A DNA stretch of 64,000 bases from NCBI GenBank assembly GCA_019058315.1, contig JAHPZH010000007.1, positions 1 to 64,000 on the forward strand, written 5' to 3'. Positions 15,101 through 42,220 of the stretch are shown one piece after another. The stretch is from Candidatus Helarchaeota archaeon. Lineage in GTDB: Archaea > Asgardarchaeota > Lokiarchaeia > Helarchaeales > RDOG01. Each line of letters starts with the position of its first letter. Position 1 is the first letter of the stretch. The notes under the pieces were generated by a model. The model did no database searches, was not told the origin of the DNA, and worked only from the letters and a program-made list of their open reading frames with translations. The position numbers and the translations under genes were made by a program.

Positions 15101-15210
15101 TTTTCAAGCATCCAATAGATAACAAAAATTTACTAATTAATAGGAAGTCTATATATGATATATGCAAAGGGTGTTATTTTAATGTTTAACTAATTATCCT
15201 TTATTTTTTG

Positions 15211-16527: not shown

Positions 16528-18552
16528 GTGCAAACAATTAGTTCTCTAGATACAAATAATTATCAGAATGATATCATAAAAATTTTAATGCAAGTTTTCA
16601 ATGAAAAAGAAGTTAATAAAAAAATTAAACTCTTAAATAAAACAATTGAATCTATAAATAAGAAGATAGTAAACACCAAAAATAAAGAAAAAAAGGAATT
16701 AGAAGGAATACTTGGAACCATTTACATATATAAAATTGATATTCATGCATATAAAACAAGAAATGAATTATTAAACAAAAATTTTGAAACAGCTGAAAAA
16801 GAATATCAATTTCTCAATACTACTTTTCAAAATTTAAAAAAAATTGAGGTAATAAAAGAAGAAGAGAAATTATATAAAACAATTATATTATTTGAGCAGG
16901 AATTAGAAGCGATTTATAATTATATTTATATAAAGGAACAAGATAGTTCTAAATTATATGCTATAAGAAATGATTTCGTGAATAAACTTCTTGAATTAAT
17001 TAAAGAATATAAAAATCTTAAAGCTATTAAACGAATAATACATTGTTCCAAGATTCTTCAAGAGTATTATATCAATATTGGTGAATTTGATTATGGTTAT
17101 AATTATCTTTTAAATACTGCAGAATATATAATACAACAATCTAAAACAATAAAAGATGAAAAACAAAAAGCTTTATACATTTCTGAATCAGAAGGACTTT
17201 TAGGAAAGGCTAATTTTGATCATGCAAATTATTTACTTAATAAAGGTAACACAATTAAAGGATTGGATTATTTTAAAAAGAGCAAGACTCATTTTAATAA
17301 TGCTACCATTGGGGTAGATGCTATAAATAAAATTATTTATGATAATTTAGTAATTATTTGTGATAAACTAATAAAATTCATATCAGCAATTCTAAATTTT
17401 GAATCTGACCCCGAAAATGTAAAAAAAGAAATAGAGAATTTCTTTAATACGTTTTTAGATTTCGAAAATATGGATTCCCAGCTTCATGAATATATAAAAG
17501 TTGGAAATCTCACATTTAAAAGTATATCTTCAATGTTAGATGCGTTTCAATCAATTGAGCATACCAAGTTCGAATCTGCCGACACCTTCTATAAAAAGGC
17601 TTTAGCTTTTTTAGAACGCGCTGATAATACAGTAATACCAACACAAAAATTAAATTTAAACTATTATAAACATTCATTGGCTATATTATTCAATTTTGAA
17701 AGAGCAAAAAAGCATTTTGAAATAAATAACTTTCCTGAAGCTATAAAAATTTTAGAAAAAATCCCAATTCAAATAAAAGAATTTTTAGATTTTTTTAATT
17801 CACTTCCTTCAACTTCAAAAGAATTATGGAAGGGAATGAAAAATTATTATATAGGTTTAATTCCATTATGTGATGCGATGATAAAACATATTGATGGTTT
17901 TAGTACAATTTTGGAATCAAATGAATTAGCCTTAAAAAATTTTACAATTGCAGATAAAAAATATCAAGAAGCTCTGGAGATTTTTTCGAAAAACATTGAT
18001 TTAAATGATTTGTATCAGGAGAAACTTTCTTTAGACTGCCAAAAATATAAACAACAAGCGTATAATTATAAAAAATTAATTGAGAATAAAATAAAAAAAG
18101 AAGTTATGTTATTTCCAAATATTACTTTTAATTTCATTTCAAATTCAGAATATAAAAAACAATTAATACTTGATTATGAAGAATTAAAAAGATGCTATTA
18201 TTCTAATGCATTTAAGTCAGTATTATTATTATCTGGTAGTATTTTAGAATCCTGTTTAATTGATAATTTAAAACTTGACGAAAAAAATTATTTAGCTAAA
18301 TGTCTTAAATTGTTTCCTCCTAAAAAGCATGAGTCAGCACCCAAAAAAATTGAAAAAATGAAATTATTTCAAATGATAAGAGTAAAGTTTGATGAGTATC
18401 CTTTTCAAGAGAAACTTGCAGATTTAATAAGAGATTTTCGTAACATCATTCACCCAGATGTACAGATTAGGAAAAAGTTAGCATATAAAACAAATAAAAA
18501 TGATGCTAAAGCATTAATTGGGTATTTAATAAATCTTTTAAATAAATTCTAA
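16528..18552 (+). CDS. Alpha-helical (TPR-like) protein with C-terminal HEPN domain
   Basis: EELKRCYYSNAFKSVLLLSGSILE plus RNIIHP (Rx4H-type) at 18439-18456. Confidence 0.7.
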   Translation: MQTISSLDTNNYQNDIIKILMQVFNEKEVNKKIKLLNKTIESINKKIVNTKNKEKKELEGILGTIYIYKIDIHAYKTRNELLNKNFETAEKEYQFLNTTFQNLKKIEVIKEEEKLYKTIILFEQELEAIYNYIYIKEQDSSKLYAIRNDFVNKLLELIKEYKNLKAIKRIIHCSKILQEYYINIGEFDYGYNYLLNTAEYIIQQSKTIKDEKQKALYISESEGLLGKANFDHANYLLNKGNTIKGLDYFKKSKTHFNNATIGVDAINKIIYDNLVIICDKLIKFISAILNFESDPENVKKEIENFFNTFLDFENMDSQLHEYIKVGNLTFKSISSMLDAFQSIEHTKFESADTFYKKALAFLERADNTVIPTQKLNLNYYKHSLAILFNFERAKKHFEINNFPEAIKILEKIPIQIKEFLDFFNSLPSTSKELWKGMKNYYIGLIPLCDAMIKHIDGFSTILESNELALKNFTIADKKYQEALEIFSKNIDLNDLYQEKLSLDCQKYKQQAYNYKKLIENKIKKEVMLFPNITFNFISNSEYKKQLILDYEELKRCYYSNAFKSVLLLSGSILESCLIDNLKLDEKNYLAKCLKLFPPKKHESAPKKIEKMKLFQMIRVKFDEYPFQEKLADLIRDFRNIIHPDVQIRKKLAYKTNKNDAKALIGYLINLLNKF

Positions 18553-18667
18553 GGTTTAAAACTTAGGAAACACTTTCATTATTACTTATAATTGAAAATT
18601 TTTATACATCTTGAAATTTTAGTGTGCTAAAGACTAGACTTCATTTTTAATATATAGGGAGATTCGC

Positions 18668-19642
18668 TTGAGTTATAGAAATATACCCAAAATAGGTTTA
18701 GATAATCTTCCTAGCATAACCAACGAAACCCGCGATATCCTAATAGAACATGGAATAACTGATGTCTATACACTCTATAATACTCCAGACACAAAGCTAA
18801 TTAATATAGGAATTGACACTCTTTTTGCAAAAAATTTGTTGCAAGAAGCATATGAGATTATGAGTAAGTATATATCTACTTTTGAATTGGATGAAGGATT
18901 AAGAAAAAGAATAGCAAAAAAAGATGAAATGACAACAGGTTGCAGGGATCTTGATGATCTATTTGGTGGAGGATTAGTTACTACACAATTATATGAATTT
19001 TATGGTCCTAATAGAGTAGGAAAAACTAAACTTCTTCATCAATTCATTTGTACGGCAGCATTACCAAAAAAATTTGGCGGGCTAGATTCATCCTCGATAT
19101 ATATTGATGCAGAAGGAAGTTTTGCCCCTGAAAGACTTAAAATAATGACTCCTAGGTTTGGTCTAGATTTTGAACAAATCCTAAAAGGAGTAATTAGATT
19201 TCCCATTCATACAGTTAATGAGTTGATTGAGTGTGTGGAAGAAAAACTTTCTCCTATATTAGAAAATTCGAATGTTCGAGTCATCTTGCTTGATAGTATC
19301 ATTACTAATGCTAGAGATGAATTCACTGGAATTAGAAATTTGCCTATTAGACAAGGAGTTTTAGGAAAAATAGCATCTACTTTAAAAAAAACCGCTGAAT
19401 CTTTTAACGCGGTTGTAATAGTAACAAATCAAATAGTTACTGAGTTTTCAAATGGAAGTATAGCTCATGCAGGTGGGAATGTTTTAGGACATGAGTCACA
19501 ATTTCGAGTTGCAATAAATTATGTGCCAGAAAAGCCAGAAATTAGAGAATTTTTTGCAGAAAAAGGTATAGATTTGCCAGAAGAGAAATGTTATCTTAGA
19601 ATTTATCGAAATGGGTTTCAAGATATAAAAGGAGGAATTTAA
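18668..19642 (+). CDS. RadA paralog (Rad51-family recombinase)
   Basis: N-terminal HhH-like region, TTGCRDLDDLFGGG, Walker A GPNRVGKT, YIDAEGSF, LLDS, VTNQ, GGNVLGH. Confidence 0.9.
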   Translation: MSYRNIPKIGLDNLPSITNETRDILIEHGITDVYTLYNTPDTKLINIGIDTLFAKNLLQEAYEIMSKYISTFELDEGLRKRIAKKDEMTTGCRDLDDLFGGGLVTTQLYEFYGPNRVGKTKLLHQFICTAALPKKFGGLDSSSIYIDAEGSFAPERLKIMTPRFGLDFEQILKGVIRFPIHTVNELIECVEEKLSPILENSNVRVILLDSIITNARDEFTGIRNLPIRQGVLGKIASTLKKTAESFNAVVIVTNQIVTEFSNGSIAHAGGNVLGHESQFRVAINYVPEKPEIREFFAEKGIDLPEEKCYLRIYRNGFQDIKGGI

Positions 19643-19702
19643 ATAATTAATAAGCAAATAACTAATACTTAAGAAAAAATTTGTAAAAAGGGGGTATAAC
19701 TT

Positions 19703-20905
19703 TTGAAAATAGAAGATATTAAAGATTCATCGGAAAAGGAACTGGTTCAGAAATTTAAAGACCGATTTAAACTTCAAGATACTGATTTTACAATAAATAA
19801 AAAGGGGATTATAACTAAAATAAAATCTGACAATCCAGAAGCTCATTATGAATTAGGTAATAAATTATCAGATAAAGGGTTATATAAAAAGGCAATTTCA
19901 GCATTTAAAGAAGCTATAAAATTAAATCCAAATTATGCAGAAGCTTATAATAATTTAGGTTTTACTTATGATGAAACAAACAACAAACTAGATGCGATAG
20001 TAGAATATAAAAAAGCTATTAAAGCGAATCCCAAATATTCTGATGCTTTTTTTAATCTAGGGCTCGCTTATAAAGATATTGAAGAGTATGATGAAGCAAA
20101 AGAGGCATTGGAAAATTTTATTAAATTTGCAAAAGAAGAGGACACGAAAGATGTAGAACATGCCCATAAACTCATTATTGAGATTGATAAAATAAATATC
20201 TCTAGTGAAAAAGAAAAAAATCGTCGTGAAAGAGCATACTACACCCCTAATGATATAAAAAAAATAAAAAGTCCTGAAAAAATAAAAAAAATACCAAAAA
20301 GAAAAATAACAAGTAGAATGCCAACTTTCCCTGATGTACAAGATTATTCAATATATGAAAAATACTATTCCAAAAAAAAAGAAGATCAGGAACGAGAAAA
20401 AAATCCAGAACATCATTTTAACTTGGGACATGAATGTCTCAATAGAAGAATGTATCACGAAGCAATAAAACATTATAAAAAAGCTATAAATTTGAAACCC
20501 GATTATTTTGATGCTCTTCATGAGTTAGGTCTAGCATACCACGGCGATAGATGGCATAAAAAAGCAATAAATGTGTTTAGAAAAGCGATAAGTAAAAAAC
20601 CGGATAATAGTTTGGTTCATTACCATATTGGTCTAACATTTTCGGAAATGGGAAAATCAAAAGAAGCAATTAAGGAATTTAAATTCGCAATTAAATTGAG
20701 ACCATTTAATCCATTAATATATTTTAGTCTAGGTCTTGAATATGAGCATATTAGGGATTTGAATAATTGTAAGAATGCTTATAGAGAATTTGTTCGATAC
20801 CCAAGCTCTCAATATCGGGATCTAATTGAACATGCATTGGAAGTGTTAAGATTATTATCAAAAAAAGGAGGAATATATAGAGAATATATAGATTTTAAGC
20901 TGTAA
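19703..20905 (+). CDS. TPR protein (two TPR blocks with a basic linker)
   Basis: AYNNLGFTY...YKKAIKANP-type repeats. Confidence 0.88.
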   Translation: MKIEDIKDSSEKELVQKFKDRFKLQDTDFTINKKGIITKIKSDNPEAHYELGNKLSDKGLYKKAISAFKEAIKLNPNYAEAYNNLGFTYDETNNKLDAIVEYKKAIKANPKYSDAFFNLGLAYKDIEEYDEAKEALENFIKFAKEEDTKDVEHAHKLIIEIDKINISSEKEKNRRERAYYTPNDIKKIKSPEKIKKIPKRKITSRMPTFPDVQDYSIYEKYYSKKKEDQEREKNPEHHFNLGHECLNRRMYHEAIKHYKKAINLKPDYFDALHELGLAYHGDRWHKKAINVFRKAISKKPDNSLVHYHIGLTFSEMGKSKEAIKEFKFAIKLRPFNPLIYFSLGLEYEHIRDLNNCKNAYREFVRYPSSQYRDLIEHALEVLRLLSKKGGIYREYIDFKL

Positions 20906-21000
20906 AAAATTTTTTAATTAAATAAGATGATATCATATTCGATCTGAATTTATTCGACTCCAGTAGACGATAATAAATATTATGGGGAACGTGAAATTAA

Positions 21001-24000
21001 ATGTCTAAAGAATTAAATTTACCAAAAGATTGGTTTGAAAAATATTTAGAGGATTCTGAATTTAAAGAAAATCTTTCTAAACTTGGAGAATTTGAATACT
21101 ACGATGAAGATTTAGAAGAGCCAATAATTTTTAAATATTGGACAGATACACGTTGGAAAATCTCTGAAATTAAGGGCGAAGGGGATTTTGTTCCTCCTAT
21201 CGCAAAATATATTATATCTCCTGCCTTTTGGAATGACGAAGAGATAGAAGCTAGATTTGCTTTACGGTGTGCCCCTAACTTTCATTTGCAAATTTACGTA
21301 AAAAAGGATAACAAAGAACATATTCTTAGTGGTATTTTTTGTTTCAAAATCTTAGCAGATTATGGTAAAGATGAAGGACTTATTGGATATCGGAAAATTG
21401 AATTATCTCCAAAGGATGAATTAATCGCTACTATACAAAATTTAGATCATTTTTTCACTGAAAAGACTCCTGCATATATGAGTTTTGACTATAATATAGT
21501 ATATTTAGCTTTAAAAACGATAATCGATCATGGTTTGGCTTCAAATAAATTACTAGAATACAGACGTGACGAAATTAAAGATATTATATTAAAAATAATA
21601 GAAGATAGTAAAGAAATTCATGGAATTAATCAGCAAATTTACATCCAATTAAAAGCTCTTTTTGATTTTGAACCTGATGAATGGGTTAAGAGTTTAATAG
21701 GTAAGCTCGATTTATTGCAATACTTAAAAAAGATGTATGAAATAGAGGAAGAAAATACAAAAAGACGTGCAGCAAACTCAATAGAAAAAATAGAAGACAC
21801 GAGGGCAATAAAGCCCTTATTTAATATTTGGAAAGATAAGGAGTCAGAACTTCGATGGTCTGCTGCAGTTGCTCTCGGAAAAATGAATGACTCAAGAGTT
21901 TTAAAATCATTAACTGAGGAATTAAGAAATATTGATAGTAATATTAGATGGAGGGCTATAATTGCTCTTGGAGAAATTGGTTATAAAAAAGCATTGGAAC
22001 CACTTATTGAAATATTGAATAACAAGACGGATAAATATCGAAGATTTGCAGCAATGGCTTTAGGTAAATTTAGGGATAAAAGGGTAATAGAACCACTTAT
22101 ACAAGCTTTGGATGATCAAGATATTCAATATGAAGTTATAGTTGGACTCACTAATCTTGGAAAATTAGCTTTGGATTCCTTAATATCCGCTTTAAAAAAT
22201 GAAAAAAAGATTGTTAAACAAGGTGCTATTAGAGCTCTGGGTAAGATTAAAGCTTCAGAGGCGGTAGATCCTTTAATTCAAACCTTAAAAGATGAAGATA
22301 GTCATATTAGACGTCTAGTCTTAGAAGCACTTAGAGAAATTAAGGATAAAAAGGCATTGGATATAATAATTGCTACTTTAAATGATTCTGATGGGTATGT
22401 TAGACATGAAGCAACAAAAGTTCTGAGAGAAATGCCCGATGAAATAGCTATTCCTTCACTCATGCAGGCGCTTAATGATAAAGAAAGTCTAGTTCGAAGT
22501 CAAGCAAAATATGCTCTTGTTAAGATCGGAGAACCTGCTGTTGAACCTTTAATCAATGCGATTAATGATGCTAGTATAATGGATCGTGACGAAATTGTAG
22601 AAGCCCTTGGCGATCTCAAGGATAAAAGAGCAGTGGAGCCTCTAATTAAGGCTTTTAATCATGAAAGTAAATTTTTTAGGAATACAATTATAAGCGCTCT
22701 TGGAAAAATTGGAGATATAAGAGCCCAGGAAACCTTACTTAAAGCTTTGAGAGATGAATATGACAGATGTAGGAGCTCAGCAGCTTATGCTCTATATCGA
22801 ATGAACTTGGAACCTAAAAAAGATATTGATAAAGTATATTACTATTTCACTAGAAACGAACGTGAAAAATTAGTTGCTTTAGGGGAAGTAGCAATTGAGC
22901 CTCTTCTTCAATTATTAAATGATGAGAATAACGATGTTAAAAAACATGCAGAAGAAGTTCTCAAAGAAATGGGTTGGAAACCTAAAAATGATATCGAGAA
23001 AGCTTATGAATTAATTGCAACCCAAAATTGGCGTGAATTAAGAGAATTAGGAGAACCTGCCATAATTCCACTTTTTCAAAATAAAGATTATAAGATATCT
23101 GAAAATGTCTGGGATACTTTAAAAAGAATTGCTAAATCACATGTAGAACCATTTATAGAAATAATTAAAGATAAAAAAAACGAATACCGAGAAAAAGCAA
23201 TAGGGGTGTTAGGAGCGAGTAAATCTAATGAGGCAGTAAAATATCTTCTTCCAGATCTAGATGATGAGAATTTTGTAGTTCGAAAGGATGCTATACGGGC
23301 TTTGGGGAGTATTGGCGATATTGAAGCAGTTGAACCTATAATTCAAGCATTAGATGATAAAATAGAAACTGTAAGGACACAAGCTATTATTGCTTTGGGA
23401 AATTTACAAGATAAAAGAGCAATAGAACCGCTAATTAAATTTGTCGAAAGCCAAAGTCATTATGAGCGAAAATATGCTCTAGAAGCCCTCAATAAATTGG
23501 GTTGGAAACCGGAAAGTGTCAGTGAAAAAGTCAAAAGATTATTTAATCAAAAAAAATGGTTTAATCAAAAAAATTGGGATGAAATAATAAAATTTGGAGA
23601 ATCCGCTATAGAACCTCTAATTGAGATTATGACAACGGTTTGGTCATGGGTAGACCAACAAGATGCTATAAGATGTCTTGGAAAAATTGGTAGCAAAAAA
23701 GCAGTTGAGCCTCTTGTAAATTTTATAGAGGATAAGAAAAAGGAAAAATATGCTAGACACGAAGCTATCAGGGCACTTGGACTCATTAATGACGAAACTA
23801 CAGTTGATCTTCTCATATCTATTATGAATGATGATGAGGAAGATGATTATTATACTAGAAGTGCTGCTATATGGGCACTTGGAGAAATTGGAATTCCAAA
23901 ACCTGTCTCTGGTCTTATCAAATTAACAAAAAATGAGAATAAATATATTAAAAGAAATGTATTAAGAACTCTTGGCAAAATTGGTGATAAAAGAGCTGTT

Positions 24001-27000
24001 CCATATCTCATAGATGCCTTAGAAGATTTTGAAGATAAAAGAGACGATAGAAATTACAATAAGGAATATTATGATGAATATATGTACGAAAAACTCCGAC
24101 AATGGAATTCTCAAGATCAAAATTGGGATGACACCATGGGTGATTGGACGGTACGACATTTAGCTGCATGGGCACTTGGAAAAATTGGAGCTATCCAGGC
24201 TTTAGATAAATTAATTGAACTTTTAAATGATGAAGACGAAGATATCAGAATAATCAGTGCATGGGCACTTGGAAGAATAGGGAATGCAAAAGCCGTTAAA
24301 CCTCTTAAAAAAGCTCTAGATGACGAATTTTCGTTTGTTAGAAAAAAAGCTATGGATGCTTTAACCGAAATTGGAGAATTTGAAGATATAGACACAATTA
24401 TTAAAAAGTTAAAAGATAAGAATAAATCTGCTAGAATGGCTGCAGTAGGAGCTCTTGGTAAAATAGGGAGTTCAAGAGCCGCTGAAGTGCTTATTCAAGC
24501 TTTAAAAGACGAATTTGAATTTCTTCGTGAAGAATATACATATCAGTATGAAGATATGGGGAAAAAAATTGAAGAATTCGAAGAATCTTCATATGATGAG
24601 CATATTTGGCATTATACTGATAAAATTCTTTCTCCAATATCTAATGCGCTTGGAAAAATTGGTAAACCAGCAGTTGAACCTCTTATTAAAGCTTTAAAAG
24701 GTGAAAATGACAACGCACAATGGGGAATAGTTGATGCATTAGGCATAATTGGGGATCCAAGTGCTATTGAACCTCTTATTAATTCTTTTATCGAAGGTTG
24801 GGAGTGGATTGAAGATATTACTATTGAGGCTCTTGCAAAATTTGGTGATAAAGCAGTAGATCCCCTCATTAAAGCACTCAAAAATCAAAACTCTAATATT
24901 AGAGCAGGAGTTGCAAGAGTACTTGGTATGATTGGTAATGAAAAAGCAGTAGATTCGTTATTACAAGTTTTGGAAGATGAAAATCGTGGAGTTAGAGAAG
25001 CAGCAGTTAGGGCTCTTGGAAAGATCGGGGATGAAAAAATAGTTAAACCACTATTAAAAGCGTTAAGAGACGATTATGAGGTTAGTTGGAACGCGGCAGA
25101 GGCGCTAAGTTTACTTGGAAAAAAATCTATAGACCTATTAATTCAAGAACTTAAAACTCAAAATAATAGAGTCAAGGAAAAAATAATTTTTGTTCTTGGA
25201 AAGATAAAAGACCCAAGGGTAGTTGATATTCTTATAGAACTTTTAAATGATAAAAATAAAGATATACGTAATCAAGCAGCAAGAGCACTAGGAGCTATTG
25301 GAAATAAAAGAGCAACAGAACCATTAATTGAAGCTCTTAAAAATGAGGATAAAAAATTTAGGGACGAAATAATTTTTGCTCTTGGAGAATTAAAAGATAA
25401 GAGAGCTATAGAGCCATTAATTAAGATACTTCAGGAGAAAAATAGTTGGATTAGGGAGAAAGCCGAAGCAGCTCTAAAAAAAATCGGAGGTAAAAAGATA
25501 GTCAAATTAAATATTGAAGTGTTGAAAAATAAGGATGAAGATATAAAGAAATCAGCAATGAATGTCTTGAGTAGTATTGGTAAATTCGATATTGATTCTC
25601 TTCTTGTCGCGTTAAAAAATGAAAATAGTGATCTGAGAATAGGTGCTGCTAATGCATTAGGAAATATATTACGAAAAAAGGTATTAGATAATGATGATTA
25701 TATAAAACGAGCATTAATTTCAACTTTAAGAGATCCTGACTATAAAGTGCGAAAAGCTGTAGCAAGCGCTCTTTTTAATAATTACCATTTTGGAATGGGT
25801 CAAGAGGATATATATGCACAATTTTTAGTGGCACAAACAAGTTTCCAAAGTTTAGAAAGGTATGGAGAATCTGCAATAGATGCGTTAGTTCCAATTTTAA
25901 GTGATAAAGAATTCTGGTTAAGAGAAAGAGCAGCAGAGACTCTCGATAAACTAAATTGGAACCCAAGAAAGGATCAAGATAAAGTGAATTATTATATCGC
26001 CAAGAAACAATGGAATAAGTTAATAAATTTAGGTAAAACTGCAATAAATACCTTAGTTGAAATATTAATTTACGGACCTCCTTTCTTACGAAGTGAAGTT
26101 GTGAAAATTCTTCAAAAACTCGATTGGAATCCTAAAAATGATTTAGAAAATGCATGGTATTTAATTGTAGAAAGAGATTGGCAAAATTTAGAAAATTTAG
26201 GGGAAAAGGCACTTGGCCCATTATTAGATGCCTTAAAATATGAAGATAGAAAAATCTCAAGGAAAATTATTGAGTTAATTTCTAAAATTGGAGATAAAGC
26301 AGTAGAACCTCTTATTAATATGTTACAATTTGAGAAAAGAGACGTTAAAAACAAAGTTGCGAGAGTTTTGGGGAAAATTGGAAATACTAAAGCCGTAACT
26401 CCTCTCCTCGAATTTGTAAAAGACGATCGGGGCATAATTGAGGGTGATGTCGTGTGGGCTCTTGGCGAGATAGGTGATAATAGCACAATAAACCTATTAA
26501 AGCAGTTATTAGGCGAATCAGATAAAATAACTAGGATATTAATTAATGAAGCTCTCCAAAAATTTGGTGAATCTCCTTTAAATTCTTATACATTATCCTT
26601 AAAAAATGAGGATCCTGCAGTTAGAGTTGATACTATATCACAACTTGTAGGAATTGGTACAAGCGAAGCAATCGAACTTGTAGTTAATACAATGCTTGAT
26701 GAAAAGAAAATCGTACGCGAAACGGCAAGTAAAGCTCTCGATGGAATAGGTTGGGCTCCAAAAAATGATCTAGAAAAAGCTTATTATAACATCGCTAAGG
26801 AAAATTGGTATAAATTAATTAATATGGGGGTAAAAGCTGTAAGACCATTACTTCACTTTTTAAAAAATAAAAATGAAAAATTTAGAGGTGAAATCGAAGC
26901 TAATTTAATAGAAATAGGAAATAAAACAAGTTACCCTTTTGTTCAAGCACTAAATGATAAAGATAAATTTATTCAAGCTGAAGCTGCAAGAATACTTGGA

Positions 27001-30279: not shown

Positions 30280-30372
30280 GTTTCTTATTCCCCAATAACG
30301 ATTCTTAAATAAATTTATTCAATTTTATTTAAAAACTAATATATAATCAATAGAGAAAAATTAATTAAATAC

Positions 30373-30894
30373 TTAATCTGTGAAATATTTTTTAATTAAA
30401 TAAGATGATATATCGTATTCTTGCCCAAAAAAATTATATTTTTCATTTTCACTTTCAAAACTTCGATGTTTGTAAACTTCACTCACAATTTTATTAACAA
30501 AGTCTATGAAGAGTTCAATATCAGAATTAAGTTCCCCATTTTCCTCACGTAATTTTTTAATTTCTTCATTATTTACTCCAAATTTCTTTTTTGATAACTC
30601 ATTTTGTATTTTTAAATTATTTTCCTGTAAATTTTTCACTTTTTTCTTTAAATCCTTAATTTCATTAGTTTTGTCACTTTTATTATTAGTTTCTTTTGGA
30701 GGCATCCACCAAATCCAAGAACCGCGATTTTTAGTTTGTTTTCCTTTGATTTTTCCTTCTATTGCTAATTTATCTAACCTATTTTTAATGATATGACGTG
30801 GTTTATTAAATAATTTTACAATTTCATTTGTTGTATATGGTTTATTTGAATTTAGAAAAAGTAATAAAATATCGTTTAATATTTGATTTGACAT
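30373..30894 (-). CDS. Winged-HTH protein with coiled coil
   Basis: PYTTNEIVKLF...RLDKLAIEGKI...WIWW followed by heptad-like region. Confidence 0.75.
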   Translation of the reverse strand: MSNQILNDILLLFLNSNKPYTTNEIVKLFNKPRHIIKNRLDKLAIEGKIKGKQTKNRGSWIWWMPPKETNNKSDKTNEIKDLKKKVKNLQENNLKIQNELSKKKFGVNNEEIKKLREENGELNSDIELFIDFVNKIVSEVYKHRSFESENEKYNFFGQEYDISSYLIKKYFTD

Positions 30895-30915
30895 AATCTT
30901 AACCAGTTCATTATC

Positions 30916-30929
30916 TAGTTAATTAACTA
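30916..30929. promoter_or_regulatory. 14-bp perfect palindrome upstream of the wHTH gene
   Basis: TAGTTAATTAACTA. Confidence 0.35.
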
Positions 30930-30991
30930 AATAACTATAATATTTTTCTTAAAAAATTTTTTCCAAATCAATAATTTTATAGACCTATTTT

Positions 30992-33900: not shown

Positions 33901-36900
33901 CGCTCTCAACCACATTAAAGTAAGTTTTTTTAAGGGAGAAGTTTTCATGATATTCTTCTTCATAATGGGGTAATAAATCACAAATCTTAATCCTACTCAA
34001 GAATTCAATAAAACTAATATATTGACCCAGTTGTAAAAACTGATAACCGCCATCCACACATTTATTCATGGGATCTAATACAGTTAGAGCAGTTTTATGA
34101 CCCATGCTTTTATTAAAAATGTTGTGAAGGTCAATTTTTTTGGATGTTCGTATAGCTATTTCTTTTGTAGTCCAACAAATGATTTTAATATCTATGTTTT
34201 CTGGATTTCTTCCTAAGTTTTTAATCAAGGTATTTATTTTCCTAATTGGAATATCTTTTTTTAATTCAAATGCTGCATAATTAAATCCATTCCGAGTATT
34301 CCCAAATTCGTAAAAATAGAGTAGCTTCTCAGGATTTTTAAGGAGATTTTCTCTCCGTTTTAAAAATTTTTCCAACTCTTTTGTTTTATTTGGCTTTGAA
34401 TATGCACACACTTCACGGAAAAATTTAGCAAAATCTATATTTTTTATAAATCTGAAGATATTATAAAGATAAAATTCATAAAAATCAAACCAATCATTTA
34501 TATAATTATTTTCATTAATGGTCGCAATCCAATTTTTAAAATTCTTAAGATTTGGTCTACCATATTTATTAAAAAATTCATCTTCATCAACAATTTCGTT
34601 AACATATTGAATTGTTAAATCATAAGCTTCCCTTTCTTTGGAATATAAAAACTCCCCATTATGTTCTTCAAATAGACTTTTTATATTATTTAGGTCATTT
34701 TCAGATTCTATTACTGGGTGATGATCAAACCAGATTAATTTGAAATTAAAGTATCTGTCTTCAAGTTGCTCAAAAAATATTTTAAGGAATTTTTCTCGAC
34801 CTGGTAAGAATGGAATGTCTGCAACATAAATATAATTCATCATATCGTGCTTTAAAGACTTTAAAACTTTATTTTCAAGAACCTTTTCAATATAGTTTAG
34901 ACCATATCTATTTGTTGCTGGAAAGATCGATAATATGTTATTTTTTCCTTGATGTAGAAATGTCAAGTTTACAGCAGACTTAAAACCATCCTTATCAACA
35001 TGAGGAATAATGCAGACATTTATCCAAGGTTCTAACTCAGGAATTCCCTTCTCCTTAGGAGATAAGAAAAAATCTAAGATTGTTAGGGTATCTTGAATCA
35101 TAATATTTCTATAAAATAGATCTTCATCCTCCAACTCAATGTATTGGGGAATATTCCCATTTCCCAAAATAGAGTCAATTATATTTACAATATTAAAAAC
35201 CCATTTTGCTTCTTTTTTTGTTTCAAAGGCACAAAAAGGAATATATTCAATATTATTTTTTGATTTCAAGAATTGAGCAAGATTTTTAGCTTCGAGCTCC
35301 ATAATCTGGAGCATAGATAATTCTTTATTCTTATAATAGAATTTTTTTGAACATACATCTTGGAATAATGTATCTAGTTTTTTCTTTGCCTTACATTTAC
35401 TTGAAACATAAAATAATTCTCTCCCTAATTCGTCCATTCCCCTCCATACGTCTTTTCTAAAAATTCTATTATCTATAAACATTTCAACTAAATAATATCT
35501 TAATGGTGGTCTATAAGCATCCATGAAATCAAAAAGTAACTCCTTATTTTTCTTAGTCATTGCCCCATAAAAGGTCTCATTTCTTTTCCCGCTATTTGCA
35601 CGATAATGCAATATTCCAGGTCCAGGGAAAAATCGATTAAATCCGACTTTACCTAAAGCTTTGCCTGCTTCTTTTTGTAATAAAATATATAGATAATTCA
35701 AGCATGCATTAAACACATCATAAGCCTTTGCACCATAATAAAAAATTGTCTCGGCGTATCTCTGTGCTTGCCGGCCAACAAAGCGAAATTTTGGGGGTAA
35801 AGCCCGTTTGATCACTTCCCAAGCATTTTTTTCTGAATTTCCTTCAGCAGAACGTAATCTATTCATGATATCTATTATTTCTTGTTCATTATGAGGTTCA
35901 TAAGAAGCATTATAAAATAAATATGTTAAAAGCAACCAATCAAGTTGACCATAAAGGAGTTTATCTTGATATTTCTTTATAACCCACGGTTTGTTTAATT
36001 CTGTAATGAATTTCGAGACTAATTTTCTTGTATAAAGCACATTTGACATTATTTTTGCAAAAACCATTTGTCTACCGACTTCCATCAAATCCCCTTTTGC
36101 TCTCCGATCTATTATTTTATTTCTAATCAAACTCTCGGATCTTTCCCTTTTCTCCGCTTCAAGTATTTCTTCTTTGTTATGTTCAATTAATTCTATTCGA
36201 TGTAAGTCAATAAAATTCATTGCTTCTTTACTTATTGTCCCTCCGAATAATTCAATTCTTCCCACCGCATCTATAAAGTAACGTCTTTTATTACCAGATA
36301 TATAAAAACGAAATACTTTATCTTTCGAGTCATAATCAACCCGTAATTCATGTCGCTTTTTCACAATTAGATTGTACGCATAATTTTTAACATTAGCTAT
36401 TAAAAAGCCATTAATTTCTTTGATTTTATTAGTTATTTGTTTATAAATTCCTGTTTTTCCCTCAAACATTCCCCTCTCTCCCATATATACCACTAATTTA
36501 CAATTCTTACAAATTGATGCAACTCCATATATGGGAATTAATAGTGTATTTATTTCACCACATTCAGGGCATTTTGGTTTGTCATCATGAATTTCAAAAC
36601 TTTTAAATTGAATATATTTACGTTCTATTTCTTCAAAATCATCACATATTTTTTGCTTTGGAGAACGTTCTTTTTTCTTAAAATTACATCTATATCTACA
36701 ATTTATTCTCTTTCTTCGATCATGAGGATGTTTTTGCAAGTGTTGGCAATCTTTACATGTTTTTTCTTGAGATTTTTCAAAATATTTCTTTAAAAAATAT
36801 CGATATGGAGGTCTTCCTATTACTTGATATTCTTGAACACAAACAACTCTATCTGAAAGTTTATCTAAGTGTGCTCTAATTTTACGAAGACTAATATCAC

Positions 36901-39292
36901 CATAAAGATTCATATACAACTCTTTTACTGTTAGTCCATTTTTACCAGCTATTTCTAATAGCTTTAATATTTCTTCATCAAGCATTGAAGGAGCTTTATT
37001 TCTCCAATTAATCTTGTGACGCCAAATCCCCGGTTTTTTACCTTTCTTTTCGATTTCTTCTTTTTGGTAACGTCTATAGATCTTATTAAGGGTATGAAAT
37101 ATTGTCTTATTTTCATCAAATACTCTAGTAAAATCAACTTCGTAGTAATTTTGTCCCTTCTCTTTAACAATTTTTTCGACATATTCATGGATTCTGCAAC
37201 CTTCACAGAAGAGATATAATGATGCAGCAAGCCAAATACTGGTTTTTCGATAATTTTCAATATCTCCATCATAAAGTCCTTTTTTATAATTCTCTTTTTC
37301 TTCTTGTTCTAGATCCCAGCGATAATTCTGTAATAAATCTCGAATTTTATCTTTCTTTTCTAGTACATAATCCCTTTGAAGTGCTTTTAAATCTTGAAAC
37401 CTAGGGTCCTCTTTAAGAAGAATCTTTGTTGCAGTATTAGTAAGGATATTGATACAAGAGCTGGGCGAGGGCTTATTATTATATAAAAACAAAAATGAAA
37501 ATTCATCAGCAGTTAAAATATCAACTTGCGATTCAACTGCTGCCTCCCCTATATATGTGAGCCCCATCACCTTTTTACTTGATCTTATATAAATTGTGTT
37601 AAGCAGATCATTGACAATTCTCCTAAGTCTATATCGAACATATCTATGTGTTAATCTTGTAAATTCATCACGCGTTATTTTTTTCCTTATATCTTCTGTT
37701 TCTTTTTTATTAATTTTATATAATTCCAAATTTCTTTCATTTTTTGCCCTTAAAATGAGCTTTTTAATATATTTCTTCCATTTTTTAAAAGATATTTGAT
37801 GATAAAATAACCTTTCAATTGCTAACTTTTCAATATCTTTTAAAGTAATTCTGCTTCTAATCTCATCAAGCTTAAAACCTCTAAAACGAAAATTCTTAGG
37901 TATTTTTTCTGATTTTTGATCTTGCTCTTTTATTTTCTTATCCTTGATTAGAAGAATTTTCTCTTCAAAATCATTTTTCAATAATTTCGAAACAAAAAAT
38001 ATTATATTCCCTTCTTTTTCTCTGGTTCTACCAATCATTTGAGTAAGTTCAACTGAGTTATAAATTTCAGCATCAGTTATTAGTATTGTATGGATGTTCT
38101 TGATATCTACTCCAACTTCCAATACAGGACTGCAAAAAAGGAATCGAATTTTATCATCCTTCATAAATTCGTTAAATTTTCTTTTTCTAATCTCTAAATC
38201 CAACCCTGCATGTATGTAATCAACATGAAAAGCAACTTTTTTTTCATTAATAAATTGCATATATTCTTCAAATTCTCTACCATATTCAGTATCAAGATCT
38301 GAAAATACAGCATTTGCGATATAATTTTTTGGATTAACATATGGAACCTTACCAAAATTTTCCCATACGAACATAGCGAGGGCTTCTGCAATCCTACGGC
38401 TATAGGTGAAAATGAGCATTTTGCCAGAAGTTTTTTTATCATTTTTCACAATATCATATAAAAATTTCTCACAATGTTTCAATGTTCTAAATAGCTTTTC
38501 ATAATATGCCCTAATATTATCAAACTTTAAGCGAGTCTTAATGAACTTTTCAACATCTGAAAATTTGTATTTTTTCAATAACTTTTTTCTTTCCCTCTTC
38601 CATATATGTTTAAAATCACCATATTTCTTTTGAATTATTTCTCCTTTAAAATTTCGTTCATTTGATCTAAAAATAAGTTCACAATTAAATTTTTTAGCCC
38701 AATTTTCTGCTGATTTTCTTTCAAAACTCCCACTTAAAAAACAAAATTGAACATCTTCATGCTCACGCTGAATTTTATATAACATCGTTTCGAGTTTTAA
38801 GCCACGAGATCTTTCTCCTAATTTATGAGCTTCATCAATAATAACCGCTCCAAATATTTTCTTTCCATAGAAATATCTTCTCTTTTGTATCTCAAAAAGG
38901 AATGAGCGAAATGCTTCATATGTTGCGATAATTATTGCATTCCCCATAGCATTTCTTAAATCATCAAGAGCAGGTCTAATTTCTGCTTGTAATTTTAATA
39001 TTTTTATTTCTCTTTGATATTCTCTTTCTAATTCAATAGCTTTTTGATGTAAAAGCATCACTGTCGGAACCAAATATACAGGAATTAAATTTCTGACTAA
39101 AGCCATTGTAGTACAAATTTTTGCAATTTCGGTTTTACCCATACCTGTTGGTGCAACTACAAAAACACTTCGACCTTTAATTACAAATTTATATCCTTTT
39201 TTTTGATATTTATGTAGTTTGCTAAGTAAGAAATTTCTACGCTTCGAACTCTTGTCTGCCTTCTCAATATTTCTAGAAATCGTCTCAAACAT
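30992..39292 (-). CDS. cas1: Multidomain Hel308-like helicase - wHTH/Zn - Cas1 - DHH - inactive RadA fusion protein
   Basis: APTGMGKT, DEAH, QMIGR; Cas1 SAEG, NACLNYLY, GILH, FDFMDAYRP; HVDKDG and DHH; RadA-like IIVNSL...IIILTQMV. Confidence 0.85.
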   Translation of the reverse strand: MFETISRNIEKADKSSKRRNFLLSKLHKYQKKGYKFVIKGRSVFVVAPTGMGKTEIAKICTTMALVRNLIPVYLVPTVMLLHQKAIELEREYQREIKILKLQAEIRPALDDLRNAMGNAIIIATYEAFRSFLFEIQKRRYFYGKKIFGAVIIDEAHKLGERSRGLKLETMLYKIQREHEDVQFCFLSGSFERKSAENWAKKFNCELIFRSNERNFKGEIIQKKYGDFKHIWKRERKKLLKKYKFSDVEKFIKTRLKFDNIRAYYEKLFRTLKHCEKFLYDIVKNDKKTSGKMLIFTYSRRIAEALAMFVWENFGKVPYVNPKNYIANAVFSDLDTEYGREFEEYMQFINEKKVAFHVDYIHAGLDLEIRKRKFNEFMKDDKIRFLFCSPVLEVGVDIKNIHTILITDAEIYNSVELTQMIGRTREKEGNIIFFVSKLLKNDFEEKILLIKDKKIKEQDQKSEKIPKNFRFRGFKLDEIRSRITLKDIEKLAIERLFYHQISFKKWKKYIKKLILRAKNERNLELYKINKKETEDIRKKITRDEFTRLTHRYVRYRLRRIVNDLLNTIYIRSSKKVMGLTYIGEAAVESQVDILTADEFSFLFLYNNKPSPSSCINILTNTATKILLKEDPRFQDLKALQRDYVLEKKDKIRDLLQNYRWDLEQEEKENYKKGLYDGDIENYRKTSIWLAASLYLFCEGCRIHEYVEKIVKEKGQNYYEVDFTRVFDENKTIFHTLNKIYRRYQKEEIEKKGKKPGIWRHKINWRNKAPSMLDEEILKLLEIAGKNGLTVKELYMNLYGDISLRKIRAHLDKLSDRVVCVQEYQVIGRPPYRYFLKKYFEKSQEKTCKDCQHLQKHPHDRRKRINCRYRCNFKKKERSPKQKICDDFEEIERKYIQFKSFEIHDDKPKCPECGEINTLLIPIYGVASICKNCKLVVYMGERGMFEGKTGIYKQITNKIKEINGFLIANVKNYAYNLIVKKRHELRVDYDSKDKVFRFYISGNKRRYFIDAVGRIELFGGTISKEAMNFIDLHRIELIEHNKEEILEAEKRERSESLIRNKIIDRRAKGDLMEVGRQMVFAKIMSNVLYTRKLVSKFITELNKPWVIKKYQDKLLYGQLDWLLLTYLFYNASYEPHNEQEIIDIMNRLRSAEGNSEKNAWEVIKRALPPKFRFVGRQAQRYAETIFYYGAKAYDVFNACLNYLYILLQKEAGKALGKVGFNRFFPGPGILHYRANSGKRNETFYGAMTKKNKELLFDFMDAYRPPLRYYLVEMFIDNRIFRKDVWRGMDELGRELFYVSSKCKAKKKLDTLFQDVCSKKFYYKNKELSMLQIMELEAKNLAQFLKSKNNIEYIPFCAFETKKEAKWVFNIVNIIDSILGNGNIPQYIELEDEDLFYRNIMIQDTLTILDFFLSPKEKGIPELEPWINVCIIPHVDKDGFKSAVNLTFLHQGKNNILSIFPATNRYGLNYIEKVLENKVLKSLKHDMMNYIYVADIPFLPGREKFLKIFFEQLEDRYFNFKLIWFDHHPVIESENDLNNIKSLFEEHNGEFLYSKEREAYDLTIQYVNEIVDEDEFFNKYGRPNLKNFKNWIATINENNYINDWFDFYEFYLYNIFRFIKNIDFAKFFREVCAYSKPNKTKELEKFLKRRENLLKNPEKLLYFYEFGNTRNGFNYAAFELKKDIPIRKINTLIKNLGRNPENIDIKIICWTTKEIAIRTSKKIDLHNIFNKSMGHKTALTVLDPMNKCVDGGYQFLQLGQYISFIEFLSRIKICDLLPHYEEEYHENFSLKKTYFNVVESGYSKSIDHIPETKPCFPTFTDIDKLVTEQNHIFFEVSQEFKEGTEILLNKKIIKMNLAIIYPPLQKKFDWTGEELEVVDKIPKENEIRLISDGKIELGRNIQKGTRIEIFGWKKSRAEGFNCGSFNLIFCHKNEEKQLMDLICYLMLAAQHEDGLNSESVVCLNNLKFPFYKNLADISRNFKNYNIENLKRVHFIPFSDNDNIDSILQRLIDIKNKFHPKLIIVNSLITQIQRNIPINGDNEELSPTWKRASIAGNFTTMLKFIARETNSIIILTQMVYDSNIYRNRRFEPYKLMPVFDTEIFLKKSFGKYVKLYGYANEKCDIILRRKKFPKFDFSGISYPHLIRETQLSFDSKTSELQYYLEGMTKFGVKYVLFKFKKDIEKEDLSLLLNNTKHGQSIDICLWHGDSFYIYIQDSKNINLKIFEDLGGRVKKEQRGNKRIPSVIRFFKNNYEDNFKNFEEFFLHFLNTDICKKISSLRDLLNMLERYSYNFFQFNWNKDNSSKKISYYEKIGYDLIEGIHPITKKKLLKRVVEIFKKSIYTKPGIRAKWYDLHCEILKYFNSNLTEEFFTSLIQNIRDFNSNDEKEIRKIIKRTLNHYLHLNLILKLQKEKKFNLKKIPYFVREVESEKIKNFIKYQSKKYDIEIENNLITFKIILNFLEFIKKLKLLLINGKIRASKELFLREIPDFFNWMEIKRLRQIIETWVNEEKIKGIFKGNIFKIQTNLDWLLLQLNKILEKEKLPAESLEEKMEPILPIINHPKLESYELKKNEFGITFLILKLDYFNKEEQITWRNSLTIERDFDFCIFPENKVLIYKTEESDANENMLKKETGNISLYFKDYDPDILFEDIFYLDLRSQIEVLIETTNKFFENPPDIEPEYIFDKDAKEYLIDELVRFFYFPIDDKQKEKDTWEKIISELMSYVELEVARNIIDGILDNIKYLKLNKKTLNLDSIKNNVIEAFLSFNL

Positions 39293-39594
39293 AATATCAA
39301 ATGAACAGCATCAGTAAAAAATTATAATTTCAAAGAAATCTCTAAAGTGTTTAAAAATTTTTTTAAATTAATTTTTTGAAATTCAAAATTACTAATTTAA
39401 ATTTAAAATTTTAAATAATTTATTAATTTTTGTTAATTCCATTTTTAAATATCATAATTTATTTATAAAGCCGAAGTGCCTAAATATCCGACTATTATCT
39501 ATTAGTCTATACCATTAATGGTAATTAAAGAAAACATATTTTCTAAAATGTAAGTGGAATATAAATAAATTTAAATGAAGTTAAAAATGATAAA

Positions 39595-40620
39595 TCATAG
39601 AAAATTACCAGAATTAAGTTCACTTAATAAAAAATTTTTTTCTATTCCTTTATAATAACCTCTCGTAACAAGGCTACCCTCTAGAAATCCGATTTTCCTT
39701 AAAAAACTTTTTTTATCTTTTTTCCTTACGATTAATAAATGGGTATATTTATCATTGATTAAATAATTGATGTTAAAATGATTATGAATTTCTCCTATTT
39801 CATATAAGAAATCAAGATTTTTTTGAGCCCCAATAAGCCAAAATCTCTTATATTTTTTGGATACAGTTATACCCCCATCATCTGCCCAAAAACATCGAAG
39901 AAACTCTCGTTTAAATTCGGAAGGACCAGCCTTTATCACTTCTGGAACTTGAATATTATTTGATTTACAACTGTAAGATGGTGCATATTTCATTAAATCT
40001 TGAATAGCTAAAATTGAGTTGTAATTAATAGATACGCAATTTTTATGGTTTTCATCAAATATACCATTATTTTCAAGTCCATATACAGTTTTCACATCAT
40101 TGATAAACTGCTGAATTACTTTTGGTGATGAACAGATAAATCTAAAGTAATTATTTCCTTTTCTATCATTGACAGAACCATCAAAAAGCATATGACTAAT
40201 GATTCTTATTTTTTCAATTGTCATTTTCTCTTGTTCCTTTATTGGTTTATATCTACTTTCTTGAAACTCTTTTGACTTCCATTTTTGTTTCATTATACGA
40301 CTAAAATGAATTCGACTTTGTTCTCTTTTAGAGGGGGTTACATTTGCAAGCTTAGCCCCCTTACTACAACCCCAATTTGGGGGGAATACTACAAATTGGA
40401 AGTCATATTTTGATTTACTGATAATTTTCAGACACTCAATAAATAAAGATTCCGGAATTGTAGATATTCCAGATCTATAATTATATAAATTATTCTTTGG
40501 TATATCCATCTTAATTGAAAGTTGCTTAAAAGTAACTTTCTTCCTTAATAAATCAAAGAATTTCTTCAAATCTAGTTTTTCTAATTTAATCCTGTTTTCT
40601 TTTGTATTTCTACCTTTCAT
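39595..40620 (-). CDS. Free-standing two-motif LAGLIDADG endonuclease with N-terminal HTH
   Basis: IISHMLFDGSV and FLRCFWADDGGI helices; N-terminal FKQLSIKMDIPKNNLYNYRSG. Confidence 0.7.
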   Translation of the reverse strand: MKGRNTKENRIKLEKLDLKKFFDLLRKKVTFKQLSIKMDIPKNNLYNYRSGISTIPESLFIECLKIISKSKYDFQFVVFPPNWGCSKGAKLANVTPSKREQSRIHFSRIMKQKWKSKEFQESRYKPIKEQEKMTIEKIRIISHMLFDGSVNDRKGNNYFRFICSSPKVIQQFINDVKTVYGLENNGIFDENHKNCVSINYNSILAIQDLMKYAPSYSCKSNNIQVPEVIKAGPSEFKREFLRCFWADDGGITVSKKYKRFWLIGAQKNLDFLYEIGEIHNHFNINYLINDKYTHLLIVRKKDKKSFLRKIGFLEGSLVTRGYYKGIEKNFLLSELNSGNFL

Positions 40621-40667
40621 TTTAAAACCGAAAATTTATTTCATAAAATCAAATAAAAACATCTAAG

Positions 40668-41969
40668 TCATTTTAGAAAATTCGATAAAAACGTTTGATT
40701 CTTAAAAAAGAGGCGGTAATCAAATTTTTGCATGTTTTGTAATGTTTTTTTAGTTTTTCTCCCATATTTTTTTATAATATAGTTTTGCATCTCATCTGGG
40801 TCTACTGTATAAGGGACTTCAATCAAAATTATCCCATTTTCTTTACATATTTTTCTTTTTATTTGGTCTCTTTTTTGTTGTTTTTTGAATCTTTTTTCAG
40901 TGGAGTGGAAAAATGAGTTATATTCATAATGCTGTAATCCATTATATTCAAATGCTAGTTTTAATTCTCGATTATAGCCATCTAGATGCATTTTTTCAAT
41001 TTTATAATCTCCAAATTCAATTTGATATTTTTCCAAAATTGTTTTATCAAGAAAAACATCATTTAAGGTAGTCGTAGGAAATTCTTTTTCAAATATTGCT
41101 TCAAAATAGCACCGACAAATTCGTTCATTAAATCCTTTCATACAATTAGGACACCAATGCCCCCTTAGAACATGTGTAGGTCTTGCTTCCCAGATATTTT
41201 TACATGCTCCGCATTGCCATTTATATTTCATATTAACATAAATATATTTTTTAGATGTGGATATTTTAGATAAAAATTTCCCAGGATAACCAGTCTTTTC
41301 CAAACCTATATCATATGCTATTTTATGCATCTCTGTTATAGAATGTCTTGCTTTTCCAGAACATCTTGGACACCAAGAATCCCCTCTTCGGATATGATCT
41401 GCAGTTGTTTCCCAAATATAGCCGCATTTCCCACATTGCCACTCATATTTTGTGTCTGTATTAATGTATTCTTTTGATAAGAATTTTCCTGGCTTCCCCG
41501 TGTTTTTTATTCCCATATCATGGGCAGCCTTATACATGTCATCTATACTAAGTTGAAGATTTTTCGCACAATTTGGACACCAAGCCCCCCTTCTCACATG
41601 ATCTGCCCTTGATTCCCAAATATAATTACATTTTCCGCATTGCCATTCATATTTTGTGTTAACATTAATGTATTTTTTTGATAAGAATTTTCCTGGCTTT
41701 CCCGTCTTCTTTAGACCTACTTCATGGGCAGTTTTATGCATTTCATCTATAGTGAGCCTACGATTCCCAGCACAATTTGGACACCAGCCCCCTTGCTTTA
41801 CTGAATCTGCCGTAACTTTCCATATATAGTTGCATTTTCCGCATTGCCACTTGTATTTTGTTTTAATATCAATATATTTTTTTGATAAGAACTTTCCTGG
41901 CTTCCCTGTCTTTTTTATTCCTATATCATGAGCTGTTTTATGCATATTTTTTATATCATATTTTTTCAT
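40668..41969 (-). CDS. Four Zn-ribbon repeats plus C-terminal PD-(D/E)xK/Vsr-like nuclease
   Basis: 4x WQCGxC..W...WCPxC; LDGYNRELKLAFEYNGLQHY; ATG 41969 with SD aggtg preferred over TTG 41987. Confidence 0.8.
   Translation of the reverse strand: MKKYDIKNMHKTAHDIGIKKTGKPGKFLSKKYIDIKTKYKWQCGKCNYIWKVTADSVKQGGWCPNCAGNRRLTIDEMHKTAHEVGLKKTGKPGKFLSKKYINVNTKYEWQCGKCNYIWESRADHVRRGAWCPNCAKNLQLSIDDMYKAAHDMGIKNTGKPGKFLSKEYINTDTKYEWQCGKCGYIWETTADHIRRGDSWCPRCSGKARHSITEMHKIAYDIGLEKTGYPGKFLSKISTSKKYIYVNMKYKWQCGACKNIWEARPTHVLRGHWCPNCMKGFNERICRCYFEAIFEKEFPTTTLNDVFLDKTILEKYQIEFGDYKIEKMHLDGYNRELKLAFEYNGLQHYEYNSFFHSTEKRFKKQQKRDQIKRKICKENGIILIEVPYTVDPDEMQNYIIKKYGRKTKKTLQNMQKFDYRLFFKNQTFLSNFLK
41140..41960 (-). 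repeat. ~204-bp coding tandem repeat, 4 copies
   Basis: gataagaa(c/t)tttcctggctt anchor at 41884, 41680 and 41476, with a diverged copy at 41269. Confidence 0.85.
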
Positions 41970-42015
41970 ATAAACACCTAATTTCAAGATTTTTTTACTT
42001 AATAATATTATAGAA

Positions 42016-42062
42016 TGCGCAGAATATATGTTTTGTTATATATAAAGAAGAGTTTTTGCGCA
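42016..42062 (-). promoter_or_regulatory. TATA box flanked by two TGCGCA palindromes
   Basis: TGCGCA at 42016 and 42057 with TATATATAAA at 42037-42046; identical spacing to 1369-1415. Confidence 0.6.
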
Positions 42063-42220
42063 AATTTAATTTAAGGGTTATTAATTTTTCCATTAATTTT
42101 CATTATCTATTTATAGAATTCCATTAGGTAATTCTGGGTCACTTAAAAGGAGTAATAACAAAATAGATAATATTCAATTAATTATTAAAAAAAAAGTAAT
42201 GGAAAATAAACAGTGAAGAT

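Follow-up and report, generated by a model that had tools for sequence, protein, structure and literature searches.

What is a 2766-amino-acid (aa) Cas1 fusion doing among nucleases, repeat proteins and a RadA/Rad51 paralog in an Asgard genome? The fusion lies in a window of 64,000 nucleotides (nt) at the start of contig JAHPZH010000007.1 (C7) of Candidatus Helarchaeota archaeon (assembly GCA_019058315.1; 5.8 Mb, 30% GC). A preliminary description, made from the sequence alone, had offered two answers: a Cas1-mobilised element carrying cargo, or a non-programmable defence system with repeat-protein sensors and a HEPN effector. Our analysis points to the first. With moderate confidence, we read the region as a resident Cas1H mobile element that sits between two convergent host genes and holds cargo between two arms. 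The right arm would run from promoter A through a Zn-finger nuclease, a LAGLIDADG endonuclease, motif B and the Cas1 fusion (Cas1H) to a winged helix-turn-helix (wHTH) protein. The left arm would be an inward-pointing RadA paralog, possibly together with a 674-aa gene. The unusual feature is an intact Cas1H copy in which TnpB has been replaced.

The layout established for the region is listed below (window coordinates).

12670-42232, no strand: whole stretch missing in GCA_013375355.1, the outer limit of the variable region (alignment to L018)
16528-18552, plus strand: 674-aa helical protein with a possible C-terminal HEPN domain (DUF4145-like); cargo, membership uncertain (R-x6-H motif, ESM Atlas lead)
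18668-19642, plus strand: RadA/Rad51 paralog pointing inward, toward Cas1H (Pfam Rad51, accessory RadA clade)
19703-20905, plus strand: TPR protein, probable cargo (Pfam; 38 genome paralogs)
21001-28632, plus strand: 2543-aa HEAT/PBS-lyase repeat protein, probable cargo (Pfam; 14 paralogs)
28606-30279, minus strand: 557-aa HEAT repeat protein, probable cargo (Pfam; 10 paralogs)
30373-30894, minus strand: wHTH and coiled-coil protein, element-associated, possible regulator (recurrence beside Cas1H)
30992-39292, minus strand: Cas1H, 2766 aa (Pfam/PADLOC, motifs, hhalign)
39471-39491, minus strand: motif B, 21 nt, 5' of Cas1H (common to the window, C6 and L105 Cas1H)
39595-40620, minus strand: free-standing double-motif LAGLIDADG endonuclease with N-terminal HTH (PF14528 above cut-off; alignment of 8 homologs)
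40668-41987, minus strand: Zn-finger endonuclease, 439 aa, in the TnpB slot (DUF4379/CapR/DUF2726; PHROG)
42004-42089, minus strand: promoter A, approximate right end of the element (TATA between two TGCGCA palindromes)
12808-16233, no strand: accessory trio of a 264-aa membrane-protein family, a 488-aa family and a tocopherol-cyclase-like gene (PF14249), absent here in L018 and L019

All nine open reading frames (ORFs) of the preliminary description are present with the coordinates and strands it gave. Pfam bore out its labels Rad51 (E 4e-43), TPR, HEAT (two genes), DEAD/Helicase_C/Cas_Cas1, LAGLIDADG_3 and DUF4379/CapR Zn fingers. Its wHTH label has a weak Pfam/PHROG match. Its HEPN label is the weakest, backed by the R-x6-H motif and the ESM-Atlas lead, with no family match.

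A Cas1H fusion at a variable site

The fusion combines an SF2 (Hel308-like) helicase, wHTH/Zn ribbons, Cas1, a DHH nuclease, a RadA-like domain and a C-terminal helical region. The Cas1 domain (residues 991-1281, about 35264-36322 in the window) scored above the Pfam cut-off. By hhalign, regions of the protein matched RadA at 97.7% (about 32930-33580) and DHH at 95.7% (about 34070-35035), and negative controls were negative. Catalytic motifs are intact: Cas1 residues E1150, H1229, D1255 and D1258 are invariant in 9 homologs, and the helicase Walker A/B and the DxD/DHH motifs are retained. The RadA-like domain lacks a Walker A motif. From sequence comparison, we assign the fusion to the Asgard aCas1 'Cas1H' family, its nearest named relatives being from Ca. 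Helarchaeota. This family has been proposed as the transposase of TnpB-carrying transposons, a distinct transposon family (Altae-Tran et al. 2023, PMC10691335).

The genome has four further Cas1H paralogs, complete or nearly so, at unrelated sites. Searched with a Cas1 profile, 3 of the 8 genomes in the order matched strongly, 6 other Asgard genomes matched distantly, and none of 149 class-level genomes of families f4 and f5 matched. The window protein falls within a clade (support 100/97) whose other four members are linked to TnpB.

Comparison with two sister loci, reached via a protein in the same 90% cluster as the radical SAM protein, established that the region is an insertion. (Labels beginning with C denote contigs of the same genome, G000; L018 is GCA_013375355.1, a sister Helarchaeota genome at 87-89% identity, and L019 is GCA_048887025.1.) L018 aligns up to window position 12653 and again from 42233, at 83-89% nt identity, with one 95-aa gene between; its radical SAM gene is joined via this gene to the ortholog of window 11845-12585. 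Thus the block is indeed accessory, as had been proposed, and the stretch missing in L018, about 12,670-42,232 (29.6 kb), is larger than had been described. In the same interval, L019 carries 88 nt of Cas1H (91%, E 8e-29), a 24-nt Cas1H piece and two scraps of the RadA paralog region (324 nt at 92% and 63 nt at 87%), mixed with genes for an S8 peptidase and a repeat protein, both unrelated. The joint survival of Cas1H and RadA scraps indicates that both were here before the lineages split and decayed in one of them. Informative sites (18/16/10) favoured no order of gain and loss among the window, L018 and L019. The L019 assembly carries the source label Hodarchaeota, yet is 86-92% identical to this Helarchaeota-like genome at the locus.

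The preliminary description had taken both flanks to be metabolic. The left flank is itself accessory at this site, because the stretch missing in L018 takes in the tocopherol-cyclase-like gene and two host-type paralog genes. The 264-aa and 488-aa families have 25 and 10 paralogs in the genome, respectively, and the trio has a higher GC content at third codon positions (GC3) than the genes on its right. These three genes are probably separate gains or losses rather than parts of the element. An empty site marked by a tocopherol cyclase adjoining the radical SAM gene, as had been predicted, was not found; the left neighbour is a 246-aa gene (11845-12585), and a search of 5 order-level genomes detected no tocopherol-cyclase-like gene. 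Between its flavodoxin and ATPase genes, L018 carries two genes that are absent at window 11090-11133: another radical SAM paralog (75% nt) and a gene of 333 aa (L018:11238-13302).

The nuclease slot upstream of Cas1H

We examined 19 other Cas1H loci, several of them truncated, of which 14 had readable upstream DNA. All 14 carry a TnpB-type or ARAMP partner upstream of Cas1H. A TnpB-type gene lies head-to-head with Cas1H at nine (C6, C11a, C11b, two each in G003 and G006, L100 and L105), and ARAMP-like genes lie upstream at five (C1, L066, L067, L068 and L070). No tnpB was detected in the window by tblastn with three TnpB types; the right-end motif of the sister TnpB copies, GGTAGTTCAT, and the PNAS motif, GTTCACTCA, are both absent from the intergenic DNA of the island. 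The slot held by TnpB in sister elements is occupied here by the Zn-finger nuclease and the LAGLIDADG enzyme, a point missed by the preliminary description.

The Zn-finger nuclease consists of four Zn-finger repeats and a C-terminal PD-(D/E)xK-like domain, with a weak match to DUF2726. It resembles phage homing endonucleases in sequence, matching PHROG 559 (E 3e-56), 681 and 9084 ('homing endonuclease'). Its C-terminus carries a PIP-box-like motif, QTFLSNFL (window 40671-40694). In the LAGLIDADG protein, D147-G148 and D247/D248-G249 are retained in 8 homologs; a search for a solved structure of its family found none.

Promoter A, with palindromes at 42016-42021 and 42057-42062, belongs to a class of TATA/TGCGCA-pair promoters found 7 times in the genome against 0.03 expected. 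Its best genome-wide match is the tnpB promoter of C6 (78% over 86 nt, E 3e-11), and in L095, L097, L103, L104 and L105 it stands before genes for TnpB-related, LAGLIDADG or Zn-finger nucleases. Promoter A would drive tnpB in sister copies and the two nucleases here. Motif B was found only 5' of the Cas1H genes of the window, C6 and L105. Close copies have different nucleases behind promoter A: a classic TnpB, a TnpB-related protein, the Zn-finger nuclease or another LAGLIDADG enzyme. Promoter A was ruled out as the element terminus, because C6 and L105 have it at an internal position and it lies 5' of unrelated genes as well. A second promoter-A palindrome pair (window 1369-1415) lies 5' of a 72-aa AbrB-like ORF (1134-1352, minus strand), and three further TGCGCA sites fall at 2462-2697, in the ORF-poor stretch before 2726.

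Several related loci preserve the steps of this exchange. In L105, promoter A points to a TnpB-related gene, away from a LAGLIDADG gene (62%) that is followed by motif B and Cas1H. In L104 the piece holding promoter A and TnpB is inverted, so that promoter A, the TnpB-related gene and the LAGLIDADG gene follow one another. The TnpB-related genes of the two loci (L104:1-2900 and L105:1-1600) are 86% identical over 140 residues and, with promoter A, have opposite orientations relative to LAGLIDADG; the inversion breakpoint lies just 5' of the LAGLIDADG start. In a remnant in the same genome (C6:230140-232400; L095:6140-8400), promoter A is followed by another LAGLIDADG gene, of 632 aa, and by the final 290 nt of a Cas1H, 85% nt identical to the window. 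The deletion joint coincides with the LAGLIDADG stop codon, and homology ends 6 nt past the Cas1H stop codon. A distant Asgard family (G141, G145) likewise has TnpB and LAGLIDADG genes pointing apart, the latter toward a Cas1 fusion. Together, these layouts indicate that the position of LAGLIDADG beside aCas1 is old and recurrent.

The nuclease pair also occurs without Cas1H. At another site in GCA_013375355.1 (L103:8350-11310), promoter A is followed by a different Zn-finger nuclease (35%) and a LAGLIDADG gene (86% nt). This cassette is inserted at the 3' terminus of a gene for a peptidase M24 and is accompanied by a diverged ~77-bp duplication of the target gene end; the orthologous peptidase M24 site in our genome (C11:677.1 kb) is empty. 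A LAGLIDADG relative (55%) was found in L113, a contig that looks viral, being rich in small ORFs and encoding a tyrosine integrase.

The aCas1 family itself is published. Its TnpB-less, protein-nuclease form with traceable intermediates appears to be undescribed: we found no paper treating Cas1, LAGLIDADG and Asgard together, although the ARAMP paper of Makarova et al. 2020, outside this search, may already contain LAGLIDADG beside aCas1.

Element partners, mechanism and competing explanations

An inward-pointing RadA paralog lies downstream of Cas1H in C1 (fused to DHH), C11a (with a single-stranded DNA-binding protein, SSB), L069 and L070. The window RadA has an intact Walker A (GPNRVGKT) and groups (96/96) with the RadAs of C1, C11a, C2 and two RadA-(DHH)-SSB units; those of L069 and L070 are a different lineage. 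The only full-length paralog of the wHTH protein (55% aa) directly follows Cas1H of C11a (C11:724k), in the opposite orientation. A 5' fragment of the wHTH gene stands at the start of contig C2, with a RadA/SSB pair as in C11a ~14 kb further in (C2:1-14800; its first 265 nt match the C11a wHTH region at 97%, and the RadA/SSB pair is 87% identical to C11a). The start of C2 may continue the C11b element, which is truncated. At its other end, C2 carries pieces of tnpB and Cas1H joined to each other, and a piece of RadA (C2:383449-384600 and C2:377366-377725).

No HEAT, TPR or 674-aa ortholog was found at any other Cas1H locus examined. Co-occurrence of the island genes with homologous Cas1 fusions, which had been suggested as a check, thus holds for RadA and wHTH and fails for HEAT, TPR and HEPN. 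The HEAT, TPR and putative HEPN genes look like cargo; HEAT and TPR are host families with 10-38 paralogs in the genome. The mobile-element answer is upheld by the empty or deleted site in L018, the remnants in L019, the paralogs at unrelated sites and the recurrence of wHTH and RadA.

How might such an element maintain itself? LAGLIDADG enzymes cut vacant sites without RNA. The same task is carried out by TnpB of IS605 elements, after which recombination restores the element (bioRxiv 10.1101/2023.11.20.567912). With this homing of IS605/IS607 elements and of free-standing LAGLIDADG enzymes as a model, Cas1 would act as the integrase for new sites, and the nucleases would cut element-free alleles, as TnpB does for IS605 elements. 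The helicase, the RecJ-like DHH domain and the RadA paralog could next carry out resection of the broken ends and promote strand invasion, by which the 25-30 kb element would be copied into the broken allele. The HEAT and TPR genes would be passengers from host families, riding between the arms. In contrast to IS605/IS607, the window element has neither a Y1 or serine transposase nor a guide RNA, and carries its own helicase, DHH nuclease and RadA.

The presence of two protein-guided nucleases in the place of TnpB suggests that the element needs only some cutter of element-free chromosomes. On this reading the RNA guide would be dispensable, and protein-guided homing enzymes could do the cutting. 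More tentatively, Cas1H elements may constitute an Asgard class of large 'integrate-and-home' elements. Such elements would combine a plug-in nuclease slot, taken by RNA-guided TnpB or by protein-guided homing enzymes behind one promoter, with a set of resection and strand-invasion functions that they bring themselves (helicase, DHH, RadA). The window copy would be an intact one that works with protein-guided nucleases alone. If so, it would naturally connect homing endonucleases with TnpB and with Cas1 integrases. Outside CRISPR, the Cas1 homologs of Asgard archaea, which keep company with TnpB or ARAMP, have so far been predicted to be transposases or defence genes. A close copy with protein-guided nucleases in the TnpB slot argues that the partner cuts vacant sites rather than guiding integration. 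This idea can be tested, as the empty-site sequence (L018), the intermediates (L104, L105) and the intact enzymes have been identified.

On the right, the element would end somewhere from promoter A (42089) to about 42232. Several observations weigh against a mobile Cas1H element. Its left end is bracketed only at 12.67-18.67 kb, because the missing stretch includes the tocopherol-cyclase-like gene. Low GC3 of the six genes at 16.5-30.9 kb (0.15-0.18 versus about 0.21 for paralogs) mildly favours the left end of the preliminary description (16528). At nine candidate left ends, no terminal inverted repeats, direct repeats or target duplication beat shuffled sequences; one A/T-run match among 18 repeat tests was dismissed, and no target-gene duplication at the candidate ends was convincing. 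The insertion predates the split from L019 (about 88% nt), so the element may now be immobile. Moreover, promoter A is found 5' of six genes in the genome, including two that have nothing to do with the element, the closest RadA relatives lie in RadA-(DHH)-SSB units without a nearby Cas1H, and the pair in L103 and the LAGLIDADG relatives in L113 imply that the nucleases can move alone.

A rival explanation is an accretion hotspot, in which the gap between the convergent host genes gathered separate pieces and no single 25-kb unit exists. The pieces would be a compact Cas1H transposon minus TnpB, an independent homing cassette (promoter A, Zn nuclease, LAGLIDADG), a stray RadA and host repeat genes. 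The site indeed differs in content among three related genomes, holding the 95-aa gene in L018, the S8 peptidase and repeat protein in L019, and this block. The lone nuclease pair in L103 with its target duplication, the end of homology just past the Cas1H stop codon in the C6 remnant, and the lack of end signals in our searches fit as well. However, three independent Helarchaeota loci, and G141/G145 as well, have LAGLIDADG immediately beside Cas1H, Cas1H and RadA scraps are preserved together in L019, RadA and wHTH recur at other Cas1H loci, and the six genes at 16.5-30.9 kb share low GC3. We hold a hotspot to be possible, though rather unlikely. A defence system, in which TPR and HEAT proteins sense invaders and activate HEPN and the nucleases around a stationary Cas1H DNA-processing core, is very improbable. 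In its favour are the possible HEPN domain, the long Cas1H ORF that is intact despite an old insertion, and the occurrence of aCas1 with ARAMP, where the Cas1H systems were suggested to be defensive (PMC8730458). But no sensor or effector gene recurs at other Cas1H loci, a search of 300 genomes gave no homolog of the 674-aa gene, the HEAT and TPR genes belong to large families of the host, the locus has decayed in L019, and PADLOC returned domain-level matches only (generic helicase, Cas1, TPR) and no complete system. The HEAT/TPR 'sensor' idea thus drops out as a lead. Slightly less probable still is a domesticated repair module, with Cas1H and RadA as a damage-inducible host kit, promoter A as a host regulon and the nucleases as parasites of the locus. 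The promoter before unrelated genes and the repair functions of helicase, DHH and RadA agree with it; the patchy distribution, the multiple copies and remnants and the loss in two sister genomes do not.

Relation to known systems and further observations

Cas1H-Asgard-1/-2 (PMC10691335) are the closest described loci. They share the helicase-Cas1 fusion family and the absence of a CRISPR array, and the paralogs in our genome stand head-to-head with TnpB as they do. Insertion polymorphism and multiple sites are also common to both (absence in L018, a remnant in L019, the 85% remnant at C6:230k). In contrast, the window copy has neither TnpB nor its right-end motif, its slot holds a Zn-finger nuclease in inverted orientation and then LAGLIDADG, about 11 kb of cargo lies between Cas1H and the RadA paralog, and its candidate ends have no convincing flanking direct or inverted repeats. 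ARAMP with aCas1 (Makarova et al. 2020, as described in PMC8730458 and PMC12669027) has an array-less Asgard Cas1 homolog in common with the window. In the C1 paralog and in four metagenome loci, this fusion is accompanied by three ARAMP-like genes, whereas no window ORF matches the C1 ARAMP-like genes or the PADLOC RAMP models (Cas7/Cas5-like). Casposons (PMC9939771) are alike in having Cas1 outside CRISPR as a probable integrase, extra nucleases and HTH proteins. Unlike them, the window has its Cas1 within a 2766-aa fusion, and we found no PolB among the island ORFs, no terminal inverted repeats and no target duplication. Unlike a CRISPR-Cas adaptation module, the window contains no match of cas2-sized ORFs and no repeat-spacer array.

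The 674-aa protein matched, by ESM-Atlas features (0.92), a cluster of which 15% is DUF4145. Searches of Pfam, NCBIfam, PADLOC and PHROG gave no match, as did a search with PF13643 (DUF4145), and no homolog was found among 300 phylum genomes. An AlphaFold model of its C-terminus from the single sequence had a pLDDT of 35. Accessory RadA clade operons without Cas1H nearby, of the forms RadA-DHH-SSB and RadA-SSB, lie at C11:631601-634922 and L092:484-2200. The N-terminal 49 aa of the TPR protein (window 19703-19850) resemble the N-terminus of a leucine-rich-repeat-like cargo protein of C11a (39% over 49 aa, E 4e-5). In the giant HEAT protein, the N-terminal ~280 aa (window 21001-21840) had no Pfam match; domains encoded at C3:319 kb and C5:1.4 kb share 50-54% identity with them. 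The DNA of the giant HEAT gene contains repeats of 93-bp period; no tRNA, CRISPR array or Rfam RNA was detected in the window, and the only repeats found are coding. Outside the island, window 46089-47488 holds a tandem gene duplication of 236 and 234 aa, ~73% identical.

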